Positions 8,433 to 40,710 of a stretch of DNA of 64,000 nucleotides are shown in pieces; within the stretch, counting starts at the first letter, position 1, and every line of letters starts with the position of its first letter. The stretch covers positions 59,032 to 123,031 of IMG/VR virus record IMGVR_UViG_3300037606_000123; one strand, 5' to 3'. Origin of the DNA: a virus. A model generated the notes under the pieces. The model saw only the letters and a list, made by a program, of their open reading frames with translations, was not told the DNA's origin and searched no databases. The translations under genes and the position numbers were made by a program.

Positions 8433-9020
8433 ATGAAAGAATTAATTTTAAACGCTATCAATTTTTTAAATATTAGTAACCCTAGTAATTTTTTACCATA
8501 TCACAATATAGATCATTTATGGATGGTTTATAATTATTGTCAAAAAATTACTGATATGATTAATAATTCAGATGTAAAAGAAACTGAGTTATTTATTGCT
8601 GCGTTATTTCATGATTATAATCATAGTGGTGGAAAATTGACAGATAATTTTAATATAGATAATGCTATAGAGGGCGTTACATTATTTCATAAAGCACATC
8701 CCGAATTTGATTTGAATTATGTTTCTTATTTAATTAAATGTACAGAATATCCATATTCTGTGTTAGATATAGATTTAACAATAGAAGCTAAAATTTTAAG
8801 GGATGCTGATTTGTCATATGTTTTTGAATATATAAGTATAGTAAAATTATATTGTGGTTTAAGAAAAGAATTTAATCAAACGTTAATATTATTTTTAAAT
8901 AATCAATTTAATTTTTTAAGTAATATTAATTTTTATATTCCGGAATTCCAAAATTTATGGAAAGGTGGAATACAAGAACTAAGATTACTAGAATTAGAAG
9001 AATTAAAAGCACATGTATAA
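8433..9020 (+). CDS. HD-domain phosphohydrolase
   Basis: PYHNIDH, ALFHDYNH and LRDADL motifs. Confidence 0.8.
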   Translation: MKELILNAINFLNISNPSNFLPYHNIDHLWMVYNYCQKITDMINNSDVKETELFIAALFHDYNHSGGKLTDNFNIDNAIEGVTLFHKAHPEFDLNYVSYLIKCTEYPYSVLDIDLTIEAKILRDADLSYVFEYISIVKLYCGLRKEFNQTLILFLNNQFNFLSNINFYIPEFQNLWKGGIQELRLLELEELKAHV

Positions 9021-9345
9021 TTTATATTTAATTTATGCAGAGATTGAATCTATAGGACAATGGAAAGTGGGTTTATCTAAGCATCCAAATAAACGTATAA
9101 ATGAACTACGAACAGCTAATCCAAATATAGTTGGTATTTCAGCTTTATATGAAATATATGAACGTGATGTTGCATATAAAACAGAAGCACTATTAAAAAA
9201 ATTTTTGTTACCATTTAAAATTGCTGGTGAATGGGTTAATATAATGGCATTAAGTCCATTATTATTTTTAGAATACTGTGAAAAATATGAACAAATAGCA
9301 AAAACATTAATACAAATAAAAAAAAATAAAAAATACATTTATTAA
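9013..9345 (+). CDS. T5orf172/MUG113-type GIY-YIG domain protein
   Basis: LYLI..WKVGLSKHPNKRINELRTANP..E..L...L..GEW. Confidence 0.75.
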   Translation: MYNLYLIYAEIESIGQWKVGLSKHPNKRINELRTANPNIVGISALYEIYERDVAYKTEALLKKFLLPFKIAGEWVNIMALSPLLFLEYCEKYEQIAKTLIQIKKNKKYIY

Positions 9346-9916: not shown

Positions 9917-10150
9917 ATGTATGTTGAAATAGTTGAAATTTTAGGTGATGTTGAAATAGTTGAAAATAAAATAGGTAAAGCTATTTTATTTAGTATTATG
10001 GATAATGAATACAATTTTAATTGTATTTTATATATTGGACAAATGTTACCTTTTGTTACATTGCATGATAATGATAAAAAATATAATGATAATGATATTT
10101 TAAATTTAATTTTAAACAAGTATAAACTAGAAGAATTAAAAAAATTATGA
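9917..10150 (+). CDS. Hypothetical protein
   Basis: 77-aa ORF after an AAAC-N17-TATAAA promoter; ATGA overlap with the next gene. Confidence 0.6.
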   Translation: MYVEIVEILGDVEIVENKIGKAILFSIMDNEYNFNCILYIGQMLPFVTLHDNDKKYNDNDILNLILNKYKLEELKKL

Positions 10151-10446
10151 TAATAAAAGAATGGTGGTTTAAAAATTACAAATCGTATGGAAATGTAACA
10201 CAAAGAATAAAATTAAATGATGAAGGTGAACTAATATTATTAGTTGGTGCTAACGGTAACGGTAAATGTGTCGAAAAAAATACAGCAATAGATATACATA
10301 TTGTTGATTTAGTATTGACAATAGAATTAATTAATTATTTGGAGACAACGGATAAGGGAAATAAAATATTACAATATATAAAAGAAACTAATAATATTTT
10401 ATATGACCGAATATACCAATTTAAGAAGAAAGAACTCAAAGTTTAA
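10147..10446 (+). CDS. gp46: gp46/SbcC N-terminal fragment fused to a split-intein N-half
   Basis: FKNYKSYG and Walker A GANGNGK, followed directly by intein block A CVEKNTAIDI (Cys1 at 10267); ends at a stop after 59 intein residues. Confidence 0.85.
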   Translation: MIIKEWWFKNYKSYGNVTQRIKLNDEGELILLVGANGNGKCVEKNTAIDIHIVDLVLTIELINYLETTDKGNKILQYIKETNNILYDRIYQFKKKELKV

Positions 10447-11701
10447 ATATTTAAAAAAATTCTTTGAATTCTTTAAAGACTATGAAAATTTAATAGTATC
10501 ATATGAAATATTATTAAATGATGTTAATATTACATTATTAAATTTTCAGAAAAACATTTTAAAAAAATATAATATGGTTGCATGTGGTAAACCAACTAAA
10601 TTATTTTGGTTACAACGTGGATATACGTTAGATGAATCTATTGTGCGTTGTAATGAGTATAAAGTTGTAAAAGATAAAACAAAATCACCAATGAATATTA
10701 ATTTTTGGTTGAATAAAGGATTTAGCGAAGAAGATGCTAAATTTAAAATAAAATCACAAAGAAAATTAAATATTGAATATTGGTTGAATAAAGGATTTAG
10801 TGAAGAAGATGCAAAGTTGTATGTAAGAGAATTTCAACTAGAACAAAATAATAAATATGTAAAGAAAAGAAAAAATAATCCAGATAAATATAATGCAGTT
10901 TCTGAAACACAATTAAAATATTGGTTGAATAAAGGATTTAGTGAAGAAGAAGGAAAAATTAAATTAAAAGAACGACAAAGAACATTTAGTAAAGATATAT
11001 GTATTAAAAAATATGGTGATGAATTAGGTTTAATTAAATGGAAAGAACGACAAGATAAATGGATAAATTCTTTAATATTGTCTGATTATGATTTATCATC
11101 AAAAAAATCAGTTACAACTAAATATAAAATAAATAACTATAATATTGATAAATTAATAGATTCATATACATTAATAAATAAAGAATTATTTAAAGAATTA
11201 TTTAAAAAATGTAAAAATATAGAAGAATTTGTAACCGATTATTCAAATCATTTTAATAATAATAATTTAGATGAAATTTCTTTATATAATATAATTAAAC
11301 CAATACAAAATTTAACTATATTATCAACATATTATAATACAGACAATAAACATATATTATCATTAATAATACCAAAAATTACTAGAATAAAAAGCAGATA
11401 TTCATATATTTCTTGGTTTAATGGACATATTTGTAGAAGTGATAGTGAATATATTATTGCAAATTATTTATTTAAAAACAATATAAATTATGTATATGAA
11501 AAATATTATAAAAATTCTAATAAAAGATGTGATTTTTATTTAACTGATTATAATTTATATGTAGAATTTTTTGGAATGACACATTCATATAAAACAAAAA
11601 TTGATTTTTTGAATATAAATAATATTAATTATTTATCTGATAGAAATCGAAAAAAATTAATAGAAAAAATTGATAATTATGTTAACAATACAAATAAATG
11701 A
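10403..11701 (+). mobile_element. Free-standing homing-endonuclease-like gene inside the fractured gp46
   Basis: Three (F/Y)WLNKGFSEE repeats plus one degenerate copy; C-terminal Vsr/PD-(D/E)xK-like segment RSDSEYIIANYL..RCDFYL..YVEFFG. Overlaps both intein halves in different frames. Confidence 0.7.
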
Positions 11702-13589
11702 TTTATTAGAATTATCAAAATATACAAATATTTTGAAATCTGAAATACAAACAATGACACCAGCGGGATTAAAAAAGATTTTTGCTGTGGATATAACAGC
11801 AAAAAATAGTAAAATTTTAAATATAAAAACAAGTAAACATGAATTATCGTGTTCACCTGACCATTTGATTAAATCAAATAACGAATGGATAAAAGTTAAA
11901 GATTTGAAAATAGATCAAGAGATAGATACTAAATATGGCACTTATAATATTTTAAGTATATCTGAATTAGATTATACTGATGATTTATTGGATTTACATG
12001 TAGATACAAATGAATATTATACAAATGATATTTTAAGTCATAATTCAAGTTTAATTTCAAGTTTAGATTTAGCTTGTTACGGGGAAGAATTGAATAAACG
12101 TGGTAAAAGATTATCTAAAGGTAATTTTCCTAATAGAATTAATGGTGACATGGAAGTAGGTGTTATATTTAATACAGATCAAGAATTATATATAACACGA
12201 AAAATGGTGAATTTATCAGCACCAGTTAAAACAAATTTGGTTATCGATAAAATTCCATATAATAAAGCAAATAAAATTGAAGATAAGATTGTAGAAAAAA
12301 TTGGATTTGATTTTAAAACATATAAAAGTTTTATTTCAATGAATGTGAATAATTTTAAAAATTTTATTTCATTAACACCAGAAGAAAAAAGAATTTTATT
12401 GGATAAATTATTTAACTTAGAACAAATAAATGAATTAAATAAAATCCTTAAAGAATTACAAAAAACAAATTCTCGTGATATTACTTCTTTAAAATCACAA
12501 ATCGATGTTTATCTTGAAAATATATCTGAATTACAATCAACAGTTGATGCAGTTTTAGAAAAAAATAAAAATAATAATTATACAAGATTAAGTGAAATTA
12601 GTAAATTATTAATTGAACATAAATCAACATTTTTAATTTTAGAAAATTTAAAAGATTCTATTCAAGAAGAATTAGATATATTTTCTAATGGTATTAATAA
12701 ATTAAAAACAAAAAAAATAAATATTAACAGAGATATAATTGATATTGAAACAAAAATAGAATTATATAGTGGTGGTAAATGTCCAACATGTTTACACGAT
12801 TTATCAAATGAATTAAATTTATTGCCTGAATTACAGGAAGTTTTAAATAAAACAAAAGAAGTATTAAATAAAACAAACACAAAAATAAATGATGCAACTA
12901 TAGAATTACAAAATTGTACAACAACACATAGAAAAGCTATCACAGATTTACAATTATTAACACAACAAGTAAATTTATTACAACAAGAACAAAAGTCTCT
13001 TAAAAGTGATAAAAACAATAACATAGAAGATTTTAAACTTAATATAAAATCATTAGAAACTAAAAAAGAAGTAAAAGAAGTTGAATATTTAGAAATTCAA
13101 AAATTAAAATATGTTTATGATATATTAACACCAATTTGGGGTGAACAAGGTATTAAAAGAGATATTATAGATTCTATTATAGATCCATTAAATGAATTTA
13201 TAGAAGAAGATTTAATTCATTTAAAAACAAGATTTAGAGTACAATTAGATAATAATTTTGATGCACATATTTATGAATGGAATGAAGAAATTGATACTGA
13301 TACTTTAAGTGTTGGTGAAGAAAAGAAAATCAATTTAATTATTATGTTAGCATACATAAAAATGTTAAGAATGAAACGAAATATAAATGTTTTATTTTTA
13401 GATGAAGTATTTGCATCAATTGATATGCAAGGTATTGAAGACATATTAATTTTATTTAAGAAATTTGCAAATGAAAGAAAAATTAATATATTTTTAGTGC
13501 ATCATTCAGAATTAAATGAATACTTCTTTGATAGAATATTATACATCAAAAAAAATACTTTTTCTTACATAGAAGAAAAAATTATTTAA
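11679..13589 (+). CDS. gp46: Split-intein C-half fused to the remainder of gp46/SbcC
   Basis: Block B SCSPDH, block F DLLDLHV and block G YYTNDILSHN/S (HN ends at 12044). Then coiled coils, the CPTC zinc hook, LSVGE signature, LFLDEVF Walker B and VHH H-loop. Confidence 0.9.
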   Translation: MLTIQINDLLELSKYTNILKSEIQTMTPAGLKKIFAVDITAKNSKILNIKTSKHELSCSPDHLIKSNNEWIKVKDLKIDQEIDTKYGTYNILSISELDYTDDLLDLHVDTNEYYTNDILSHNSSLISSLDLACYGEELNKRGKRLSKGNFPNRINGDMEVGVIFNTDQELYITRKMVNLSAPVKTNLVIDKIPYNKANKIEDKIVEKIGFDFKTYKSFISMNVNNFKNFISLTPEEKRILLDKLFNLEQINELNKILKELQKTNSRDITSLKSQIDVYLENISELQSTVDAVLEKNKNNNYTRLSEISKLLIEHKSTFLILENLKDSIQEELDIFSNGINKLKTKKININRDIIDIETKIELYSGGKCPTCLHDLSNELNLLPELQEVLNKTKEVLNKTNTKINDATIELQNCTTTHRKAITDLQLLTQQVNLLQQEQKSLKSDKNNNIEDFKLNIKSLETKKEVKEVEYLEIQKLKYVYDILTPIWGEQGIKRDIIDSIIDPLNEFIEEDLIHLKTRFRVQLDNNFDAHIYEWNEEIDTDTLSVGEEKKINLIIMLAYIKMLRMKRNINVLFLDEVFASIDMQGIEDILILFKKFANERKINIFLVHHSELNEYFFDRILYIKKNTFSYIEEKII

Positions 13590-39612: not shown

Positions 39613-40710
39613 TTATTTTTTATTTAATTCTAATAATGTATAACATTTTTCTATTGTTTCATTCATAGAATTTTTTAAATCTATTTCATTAAATAAATCA
39701 GTTTCATCACTTATTTTTAAATTATTTATCCATTCAAAACTTACATCTTTTATTGTTTTGTCTTTATTATAATTTGATATTTTTGTTGGTTTATTTTCTT
39801 TAATAATATCATTTATAAATTCTATATTTTGAATTTTGTGTTTATTAGTTATTTTATCTAAATCTAATCTAAGATGTGGTGTATTTAATAATAAATTATT
39901 ACTAACAGAAATATCAATAAAATTATTTGTTTTAATTTCTTCTTGTAATATTTTAAAATCTGATTCTTGTAAAATATTAATTTTTTTAAATTCTGGACTA
40001 AAATTATTTTCAATAAAAAAATCAGTTTTCTTTTTTGTATCATATACAAAAATACCTTTTTTATTTTCAACATCATTGCGGTCTAAATGATATGGTGAAC
40101 CTACAAATGTAAAATTATTTATTTCTTGTACAATATGAATATGTCCAGAATAAACTTTCCCATATCCAGCAAAATCGTCAATATCTAATATATTTCTATT
40201 TAATGGTCTTGTTGGATATAATTGTGTTCTACAACCATTTAAATCTGAATGACAAAATAATAAATCAGCACCTTTGTATTTTTCTAATATTTCTTTTTCA
40301 TTATCTTTACCATGGATCCATGGCATAATTACTATTGATAAACCGTCAATAGTGATTTTTTGTGGTTCTTCATAAACGAATACATTATTAATATTACGAA
40401 CAGTTGATACTGAATTAATATCCGGACTATTCATTAAATACATATCGTGATTACCTAATAATAAATGACATTCAATTATTTTTGATAAATCTTCAAACAA
40501 TTTAATTACAGTATCAATAGTTTTTAAATTAATACTTGTTCTATTATCAAATAAATCACCTAGAAAAAAAAACTTATCACCAGGTTTTGAATACTTAATT
40601 ATAGTTGGTATAAAAAATTCATAAAAATATGCTTTCATATTATTAAGCCATTTATCTGAATCTAAATTATATTTTCCAAAATGTGCATCTGATAGTAACC
40701 AAAATTTCAT
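39613..40710 (-). CDS. gp47: gp47/SbcD (Mre11-like) nuclease subunit
   Basis: SDAHFG, LGDLFD, GNHD, GHIH metallophosphoesterase motifs and GSPY. Confidence 0.92.
   Translation of the reverse strand: MKFWLLSDAHFGKYNLDSDKWLNNMKAYFYEFFIPTIIKYSKPGDKFFFLGDLFDNRTSINLKTIDTVIKLFEDLSKIIECHLLLGNHDMYLMNSPDINSVSTVRNINNVFVYEEPQKITIDGLSIVIMPWIHGKDNEKEILEKYKGADLLFCHSDLNGCRTQLYPTRPLNRNILDIDDFAGYGKVYSGHIHIVQEINNFTFVGSPYHLDRNDVENKKGIFVYDTKKKTDFFIENNFSPEFKKINILQESDFKILQEEIKTNNFIDISVSNNLLLNTPHLRLDLDKITNKHKIQNIEFINDIIKENKPTKISNYNKDKTIKDVSFEWINNLKISDETDLFNEIDLKNSMNETIEKCYTLLELNKK

Follow-up and report, generated by a model that had tools for sequence, protein, structure and literature searches.

The gp46 gene, which encodes a Rad50/SbcC-like recombination ATPase, is found in two pieces, with a homing-endonuclease-like gene between them, in a DNA stretch of 64,000 nt (hereafter the window; positions 59,032 to 123,031 of the IMG/VR virus record IMGVR_UViG_3300037606_000123). 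The window has a G+C content of ~20%, and the record is 123 kb in length, with a CheckV completeness of 31%. Because the nearest named relatives of its gp46 sequence (the extein) are 630–735-kb 'uncultured phage' genomes, the source virus is a huge phage. An ORF (open reading frame) listing and a reading of the sequence place three overlapping plus-strand ORFs, each in a different frame, at 10147–13589. The first, gene N (10147–10446; 99 aa), begins with 40 codons of gp46 (M1–K40, 10147–10266; the N-extein), which end with the first part of the Walker A motif (..LLVGANGNGK) and are followed by a Cys codon (10267–10269), 58 further residues and a TAA stop (10444–10446). The middle ORF (10403–11701; 432 aa), in the +1 frame relative to gene N, overlaps it by 44 nt and overlaps the third ORF by 23 nt before its own stop at 11699–11701. 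The third, gene C, is open from a TTG at 11670 and has its first ATG at 11679; it encodes 122 residues that end in ..DILSHN (11679–12044; Asn codon 12042–12044) and continues with SSLISSLDLACYGEE.. (SSLISSLDL..) to 13589. This C-extein (12045–13589) comprises 514 aa and a stop, and its first residue, Ser+1, completes Walker A (GK/SS; the slash marks the junction). These are the two halves that an earlier note on this DNA had described, namely GANGNGK/C.. (59 aa) with a stop, and 122 aa ending in HN/SSLI, and both the ORFs and the sequence confirm them.

The identity of the host gene is clear from its C-extein, which matches phrog_77 (SbcC-like, E 1e-43) and the Pfam family SbcC_Walker_B, and which finds T4-like gp46 and huge-phage genes in a tblastn search. 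Its CPTC zinc hook, signature motif, Walker B and H-loop are all intact, and in an alignment of 40 relatives C368, P369, C371, S544, G546, E547, D575 and E576 are invariant and H609 is nearly so. The N-extein is alignable with the N-termini of uninterrupted gp46 genes. The gene is cut between the K and the S of Walker A, so that this motif is complete only once the exteins are joined. Among 55 related viral loci gp46 is mostly uninterrupted, and the uninterrupted genes of related huge phages read ..GNNGNGKSSLLESFEY.. across the junction. At the same place, LR756504, LR745206 and LR756502 have ..GNGKSSLLESFEY.. or ..GGGKSSTLESIDF.., intein-free relatives have GNGKSSLLESFEY and GKGKSSILSSLDL, and the joined window exteins have GANGNGK+SSLISSLDL; locus L007, which also shares EWWFKNYKSYG with the window, reads ..GSNGKGKSSILSSLDLAIFGEE.., i.e., ..GKGK/SSILSSLDLAIFGEE... 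Because uninterrupted relatives read GNGKSS across the junction, removal of the sequence from Cys 10267 through Asn 12044 restores Walker A exactly. By this comparison, the insert is placed with both its start and its end exactly at intein-type boundaries within Walker A, as the earlier note had proposed. A gp47/SbcD-like (Mre11-type) nuclease gene, the product of which would be the partner of gp46, is intact at 39613–40710 on the minus strand (phrog_100, E 2e-50; Metallophos, 36 bits). It lies ~26 kb from gp46 and is not adjacent to it as in T4. No second gp46 was found in the 123-kb record.

What are the sequences that interrupt the gene? The features expected of an intein are divided between the two genes in the manner claimed by the earlier note, with block A in gene N and blocks B, F and G in gene C, as judged from hidden Markov model (HMM) matches, invariant residues and a structural model. 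The part of the N-half that belongs to the HINT fold (10267–10302; CVEKNTAIDIHI) holds Cys1 and strands beta1–beta2, which include block A; in the C-half, block B is at 11853–11864 and blocks F and G are at 11982–12044 (..DLLDLHVDTNEYYTNDILSHN). The motifs are the Cys after Lys40, SPDH in block B, DLLDLHV in block F and SHN/S at the end. When the C-half was searched against PDB sequences, inteins were the only matches down to E 0.03; the consensus atypical split intein CatC was the best of them (8e-5), and Spl DnaX, gp41-1, NrdJ-1 and VidaL were also found. An AlphaFold2 (AF2) model of the C-half (predicted local distance difference test score, pLDDT, 81.6) is most similar in Foldseek to VidaL (6vgv; query-normalised TM-score, TMq, 0.79; root-mean-square deviation, rmsd, 2.3 Å; E 1e-7). 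At E <= 1e-3 there were 44 PDB chains, and among the matches listed all are inteins or HINT-type domains; the modelled C-half thus has the HINT (horseshoe) fold. In the alignment of 40 relatives, H62, D102, D105, H121, N122 and S+1 (S123) are invariant, and Cys1 or Ser1, the block B His, the block F Asp, the His-Asn pair and Ser+1 are kept in at least 40 relatives. The ratio of nonsynonymous to synonymous substitution rates (dN/dS) is 0.07–0.34 for the C-half and 0.25–0.50 for residues 1–46 of the N-half; both intein halves are under purifying selection. Pfam and PHROGs gave no intein match for the three whole ORFs, and PF14890 detected no further intein across the 123-kb record of the phage.

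The position of the break within the fold can be specified further. The intein HMMs match the C-half from profile position 11–16 on, and the first 10–15 positions (block A) are missing there; in the AF2 model, a helix occupies C-half residues 6–13 (..INDLLELS..). Because the helix in the C-half model, the HMM start position and the alignment with VidaL agree, helix alpha-1 is assigned to the C-half, and the break falls after beta2 and before alpha-1, which is the S1 site of the VidaL type and not the S2 site of the terminase type. The atypical geometry described in the earlier note, a short N-half with a long C-half, is therefore upheld and refined to S1. The minimal contiguous relative, L132 (135 aa), illustrates the same region without a break: ~18 residues (C-V-T-K-E-T-K-I-K-I-K-I-N-D-D-I-K-E) precede its alpha-1 segment, ITIGELNDIF. 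In the alignment, L132 'KEITIGELNDIF' pairs with VidaL 'KKVTVQELRELY', and ITIGELNDIF pairs with VidaL VTVQELRELY.

In the window the N-half is 59 aa long, and it is 53–59 aa in its subfamily and 23–37 aa in other gp46 subfamilies. Only ~12 of the 59 residues are HINT core (CVEKNTAIDIHI); residues 13–59 are an extension in the S1 loop (10303–10446 with the TAA; ..DLVLTIELINYLE..YIKETNNILYD..), for which NCBIfam gave no match. Members of the Cys1 subfamily and of the Ser1 subfamily alike carry the extension in conserved form, as ..[ED]L...FLE......Y[IL][KR]E.N..LY[DE].., and its Y[IL][KR]E.N..LY[DE] part is kept despite synonymous substitutions in L083 and L039. These synonymous changes, together with the dN/dS of 0.25–0.50, argue that the extension is constrained as a protein. 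It is absent from the contiguous inteins of L071, L098 and L132, and a diverged copy occurs in contiguous L068. The last 44 nt of gene N, which encode the end of the extension, overlap the start of the nuclease gene, and in the loci mapped the ATG of the nuclease gene always lies within the LY[DE] codons. We considered that the tail end of the N-half might be mere read-through into the 5' region of the nuclease cassette, and rejected this idea because the peptide is kept despite synonymous changes. A duplication relating 'LVLTIELINYLE' in the N-half tail to 'LTIQINDLLELSK' in the C-half was also rejected: contiguous relatives carry both segments and the minimal L132 is without the first, so the first segment is a loop insertion. 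An alternative genetic code was dropped, as the stop of gene N is TAA and relatives use various stops. The earlier note had likened the intein to the atypical split inteins sought for protein semisynthesis; the likeness holds for the S1 geometry, but a 59-aa N-half is no convenient synthetic peptide.

Taken together, these features make it highly probable, in our judgment, that gp46 is a fractured gene in which a mobile cassette of ~1.78 kb, where the N-half and the C-half of an intein flank a homing-endonuclease gene, is inserted between the Lys and Ser codons of Walker A, and that the halves trans-splice; a lopsided split intein almost certainly joins the two proteins. The steps of translation, assembly and splicing described here are derived from sequence, fold and comparison. 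Two separate products would be translated, one with the 40-aa N-extein and the 59-aa N-half and the other with the 122-aa C-half and the 514-aa C-extein. The N-half would contribute Cys1 and beta1–beta2 and complete the HINT fold of the C-half, which provides alpha-1 and blocks B, F and G. Class-1 trans-splicing would then proceed through a Cys1 thioester, attack by Ser+1 and cyclisation of Asn122, and it would release the intein and yield a full-length gp46 (~554 aa) with an intact GANGNGKSS P-loop, able to work with a gp47/SbcD-like partner. The spliced protein would carry the junction peptide ..GANGNGKSSLISSLDL... The middle gene would encode a modular nuclease, with a repeat region and a PD-(D/E)xK catalytic domain. 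Its most likely targets during co-infection would be gp46 alleles without the intein, cut close to the conserved P-loop codons, whereupon repair would copy the whole cassette (homing).

Might the two pieces of gp46 instead function as a non-covalent complex, with the intein halves serving as dimerisation handles and no splicing taking place? There are precedents for parts of this proposal: the NrdA protein of Aeromonas phage Aeh1 is put together from two pieces, a mobile endonuclease gene having been inserted (PMC3045599), and in one case a Vsr-like gene has fractured an SbcD-like gene in the absence of any intein (Dassa 2009, PMC2677866). The 47-residue extension of the N-half could also be an interaction module. 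However, the residues invariant among relatives include those needed only for the splicing chemistry (Cys1/Ser1, the block B His, the block F Asp, His-Asn and Ser+1), and because the break is within the P-loop, ~180 foreign residues would stay in the ATP site of an ABC-type ATPase. We therefore regard a complex without splicing as very improbable.

A second question is whether the halves are really encoded by separate genes. The TAA at 10444–10446, the own ATG of gene C at 11679, the three frames and the existence of nuclease-free relatives with a spacer between the halves indicate that they are. In both the nuclease gene and gene C the ATG keeps its homologous position, and the overlaps vary in length (23–44 nt and 11–35 nt). 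The same three-gene order and the same +1/+1 frame steps recur in the independent contigs L009, L008, L010, L039, L040, L073, L081 and L083, whose inteins are only 43–72% identical, which argues that the split layout is no one-off assembly error. The earlier note had offered as an alternative that two programmed +1 ribosomal frameshifts generate one polyprotein; the product would then be a contiguous maxi-intein with the nuclease nested in its S1 loop, and splicing would occur in cis. It is true that the three ORFs overlap, that each step is +1, with the frame relation kept in 8 of 8 mapped split loci with this nuclease type, and that the middle ORF's reading frame is already open 21 nt before the ATG. 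The overlaps, however, differ in both length and sequence and share no slippery site, each downstream ORF has its own conserved ATG, and neither junction has significant RNA structure (folding z -1.0 and -0.3). Moreover, the halves occur as separate genes with no nuclease gene at all (L089 and L095, with a stop and a spacer) or with remnants only (L101 and L122), and unrelated nuclease families (GIY-YIG, DUF559/Vsr-like and TnsA-like) occupy the same gap. Finally, the nested endonuclease domains that are known, as described in PMC2677866 and PMC13014065, are at a different intein site. Frameshifting is accordingly an extremely improbable explanation, and we retain the reading of separate genes joined by trans-splicing.

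The middle ORF agrees with the free-standing endonuclease in a third frame that the earlier note had proposed. Six full-length homologues align with it end to end. Its N-terminal half contains four YW.xxG[FY]S.E repeats, and its C-terminal block has the pattern H.CRS..E ... CDF ... E..GM ... K in common with the homologues. The fold of this C-terminal domain (~11384–11698) was assigned from three comparisons. First, a profile of 29 such domains matches T7 endonuclease I (E 0.0019), the only PDB profile match, in an alignment that pairs RS..E, DF and the E of E-x-K. Second, the Foldseek match closest to the AF2 model of the domain (pLDDT 86.7) is the catalytic domain of I-Bth0305I (E 0.12, probability 0.97). 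Third, VIA-align superposes the model on 3hrl (Z 8.9; rmsd 3.1 Å over 85 aa) and on I-Bth0305I 3r3p (Z 8.4; 2.8 Å over 84 aa), followed by Bax1 (8.1), VRR-NUC (7.6), TnsA (6.6), Vsr (5.9) and Hjc (5.4). We therefore assign the domain a predicted PD-(D/E)xK nuclease fold, for which the support is middling but consistent. The six full-length homologues show no variation at E349, D377, E388 and K399; in the 29 domains, the D, E and K are invariant and E349 is at least 90% conserved. The repeat region is probably DNA-binding; Pfam gave chance-level matches only for it, and Tandem Repeats Finder found no DNA-level repeat behind the protein repeats.

With the whole middle ORF, Pfam, PHROGs and NCBIfam gave no match, and the full-length nuclease alignment, used as a profile against the PDB, gave 0 matches; only the profile of the C-terminal domain worked. 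Pfam showed no DUF559 or Vsr match for the window nuclease, a search of viral contigs for related loci with the nuclease protein found no relative, and a protein atlas offered only leads below 0.9 (a DUF559 cluster at 0.89). The nuclease family is large: at E <= 1e-3 it has 2032 cluster representatives, at the stricter E <= 1e-10 there are 762, and homologous ORFs occupy the same gap in more than 30 loci. The other nucleases in this gap of other gp46 loci are repeat-bearing DUF559/Vsr-like ..IEFNGDYWH.. proteins, where the window nuclease has ..VEFFGM.., and a GIY-YIG protein (L078); the gap nucleases of L126 and L140 are above the DUF559 threshold. Elsewhere in the phage's own record, outside the window, a 517-aa ORF (L144:883–2436; G000:C1, ~38.7–40.3 kb) has Cys-rich N-terminal motifs, a Vsr-like '..LAFEFNGLYWHSE..' nuclease motif and a weak nuclease-domain profile match (E 2e-4), and is probably another free-standing homing endonuclease of the same phage.

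Several observations weigh against the interpretation of the locus as a working, mobile, trans-splicing cassette. The HMM comparison suggested in the earlier note was equivocal, in that the C-half alone is below the thresholds of the curated models (PF14890, 19.1 bits against 35.8; TIGR01445, 15.1 against 24.5), whereas the contiguous relative L098 reaches 46 bits and exceeds the Pfam Intein_splicing threshold of 35.8. In the subfamily of the window, the canonical His of block F is a Glu (..VDTNEYY..), and the Thr of block B is replaced by Ser. In the nuclease domain, the Lys of E-x-K is missing (the sequence reads E[YF]xG[ML]), although an invariant Lys 11 residues downstream may replace it. 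The structural matches of the nuclease are middling (Z 8–9; Foldseek E 0.12), and its gene has a dN/dS of 0.78 relative to L009 and may be decaying. Since the record is only ~31% complete, a second, intact gp46 may exist elsewhere in the genome. We infer splicing, association of the halves, expression and nuclease activity alike. Could the locus then simply be decaying, with gp46 inactivated by the insertion and the intein, the nuclease or both non-working? The nuclease dN/dS, the missing canonical Lys, the His-to-Glu change and the incomplete record would all be compatible with this possibility. Against it, all three ORFs are intact, as is the gp47 partner; purifying selection acts on both the intein halves and the extein motifs, which dozens of phages have kept; and the same block F and G sequence is common to more than 50 relatives with intact genes. 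We hold decay of the locus to be improbable, with only a slight chance of being correct, and keep to the fractured gene with a trans-splicing intein.

How widespread is this arrangement? A metagenome scan with the C-half alignment yielded at least 287 relatives, which include split forms with a nuclease gene, split forms without one and contiguous forms; 80 loci were taken and classified by script. The earlier note had spoken of rare atypical split inteins; with this number of metagenomic relatives, the arrangement cannot be called rare in nature. With the C-half as query, a word-indexed protein search gave 58 relatives with 57–76% identity; nearly all of these are gene-C forms of 644–665 aa, on contigs of up to 617 kb, and three are contiguous (718–751 aa). 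In loci with a nuclease gene, the gap between the halves is 0.9–1.5 kb. Between the halves of L101 (4297–4492) and L122 (4091–4429) there are only remnants of Vsr-like nucleases (e.g., ..FYGDFWHCNP.., in a 136-aa ORF), and these loci look like stages of homing-endonuclease decay. In L089 and L095 the halves are adjacent, separated by a stop and a 38–47-nt spacer. The intein is contiguous in L068, L071, L080, L087, L098, L099, L111, L120, L132, L133 and L137. In L068 (1363–3633; protein P0050), the contiguous gp46 intein contains a diverged copy of the N-half extension (..YIIKCNIPLYKKIFG..), then ~15 residues and then the C-half sequence, and it looks like a split intein that was re-fused after loss of the nuclease gene.

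A quick maximum-likelihood tree built from 68 intein cores shows the contiguous forms scattered; its well-supported branches force at least six changes, and close contiguous/split sister pairs occur (L133/L136 and L098/L088). Between the window and L009, identity is 72% for the C-half, 63% for the N-half and 53% for the nuclease but 29% for the C-extein, and the closest extein relatives, L006 (61%) and L007 (58%), are without the intein. Because the cassette is more similar between phages than the host gene is, and the closest host-gene relatives have no cassette, these comparisons bear the signature of horizontal spread by homing.

A sister clade has Ser as the first intein residue (GK/S[VL]...) together with Ser+1 (L010:4151–7929, L039:4211–7950, L073, L008, L040, L074 and L081). 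In L010, L039 and L073 there is no cysteine in either intein half, which makes them candidates for a second family of natural inteins that are cysteine-less and atypically split. Other P-loop proteins also contain inteins that belong with those of gp46 (..YYSNGI[LV]SHN/S), and their exteins, assigned by eye only, look like DnaB/gp41-type helicases (L126, L140 and L102), a PhoH-like ATPase (L128, ..SHN/SGKT..) and a terminase (L139). In L060 (3340–6444), a phage large terminase is split after Walker B (..LLIIDE/C) by a related S2-type intein with a 32-aa N-half that includes helix alpha-1, and with Cys at +1; a 353-aa TnsA-like endonuclease gene (PF08722, 28.4 bits) is in the gap.

We speculate, and put this forward tentatively as a possibility somewhat short of probable, that the gp46 Walker A inteins are one large family in which S1 breakage has been gained and reversed many times, that the 47-residue extension is a dedicated docking or expression-coupling module, and that the Ser1/Ser+1 clade of L010, L039 and L073 is the second natural cysteine-less, atypically split family. 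The order of events would be invasion by a nuclease gene, a split intein, decay of the nuclease and, finally, either a nuclease-free split intein or a re-fused contiguous one.

Other features of the window were noted around the locus. A scan for sigma-70 promoters found 45 against 49 expected from shuffles, i.e., no better than shuffles. Within the C-half coding region, a 10-bp perfect inverted repeat (TTTTTGCTGT..ACAGCAAAAA, 11779–11805) is flagged as terminator-like on the minus strand only and may be due to chance. About 0.8 kb upstream of gp46, a 110-aa plus-strand ORF (9013–9345) contains a MUG113/T5orf172 domain, with scores (27.1 and 21.4 bits) that both exceed the threshold. In mobile phage genes, domains of these types are commonly regarded as GIY-YIG-like nuclease modules.

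If the proposed splicing is true, an essential recombination ATPase of a huge phage depends on a post-translational ligation within its ATP-binding loop. Through the locus and its relatives, the S1-site inteins would gain a new host protein and a natural family that is both large and diverse, with Cys1 and Ser1 variants and N-halves of 23–59 residues. One family would also show all the stages proposed for the fracture of inteins by homing endonucleases, namely the intein-free allele, the contiguous mini-intein, the split form with a nuclease gene, the split form with nuclease remnants and the split form without a nuclease gene, so that the fracture model becomes testable with natural sequences. 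The literature contains few natural split inteins whose N-half is short (AceL-TerL, GOS-TerL, VidaL and PolB16), and they are sought for protein semisynthesis and labelling; for specialists, the long conserved N-half extension and the cysteine-free Ser1 sister clade are the two features of interest. The earlier note knew of no gp46 with this split geometry, and in the literature searched, which is thin in subscription journals, we likewise found no published split intein in gp46, Rad50 or SbcC.

Among known systems, the closest in geometry are VidaL and PolB16. According to a 2026 paper (PMC13014065), natural atypical split inteins are broken at S1, after beta2 (VidaL and PolB16; Neugebauer et al. 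and Burton et al., cited therein; see also Pasch et al. 2023, PMC10189870), or at S2, after alpha-1 (AceL-TerL and GOS-TerL); their N-halves are 15–37 aa long, a range outside which the 59-aa N-half of the window falls; and PolB16 is the only known natural intein that is both cysteine-less and atypically split. Like VidaL and PolB16, the gp46 intein is of phage or metagenome origin and is broken just before the strand and alpha-1 segment, which leaves alpha-1 and blocks B, F and G to the C-half. It differs from them in its host site, the Walker A loop of gp46 (PolB16, in the same source, interrupts a PolB-type polymerase gene), in the length of its N-half (59 aa against the 16 and 15 aa given there), owing to the conserved 47-residue extension, and in sequence, with an identity of only ~23%.

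The inteins of phage large terminases (AceL-TerL, GOS-TerL and Cat; Thiel 2014; Bachmann & Mootz 2015; PDB 6dsl) are split at S2. Their relationship to the gp46 intein is seen in CatC, the best PDB sequence match, and in the shared block F/G signature ..NEYYTN[DG]I[LV]SHN, and the terminase member L060 likewise has a nuclease gene between its halves. In contrast, helix alpha-1 is in the N-half of these inteins (IPIEDLFKN in L060), whereas the gp46 equivalent, IQINDLLELSK, is in the C-half; the terminase insertion is at Walker B and not Walker A, and the +1 residue is Cys rather than Ser.

With respect to gene layout, the nearest precedents are the fractured genes of Dassa, London, Stoddard, Schueler-Furman and Pietrokovski (2009; PMC2677866), who described eight fractured host enzyme types, mostly in phages. 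As the earlier note had pointed out, the likeness to these loci is close: a host gene of DNA metabolism is divided into two ORFs, each with a split-intein half, and a free-standing homing-endonuclease gene lies between them in overlapping frames. One listed exception, a terminase, has a non-canonical break point. On the other hand, gp46, Rad50 and SbcC are absent from the eight host types (0 occurrences), the gp46 break is at S1, and the window nuclease is without the Vsr-like ..NGxxWH motif, which is present in L081, L097, L110, L123, L126 and L140. I-Bth0305I (Taylor et al. 2011, PMC3239194; PMC2677866; 3r3p) serves as structural representative for the Vsr-like homing endonucleases, whose first description came from fractured genes. 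The C-terminal domain of the window nuclease superposes both on this enzyme and on the DUF559 structure 3hrl, and its predicted architecture, an N-terminal DNA-binding part with a C-terminal PD-(D/E)xK-type domain, is modular in the same way. It nevertheless differs from them in three respects: it has no significant sequence match to either, its active site would be E..D..E with a displaced K and not the Vsr-type His (..FWH..), and its N-terminal YW.xxG[FY]S repeats match no Pfam family. The gp46 locus is, in our assessment, a new host protein and a new subfamily for an already known kind of element.

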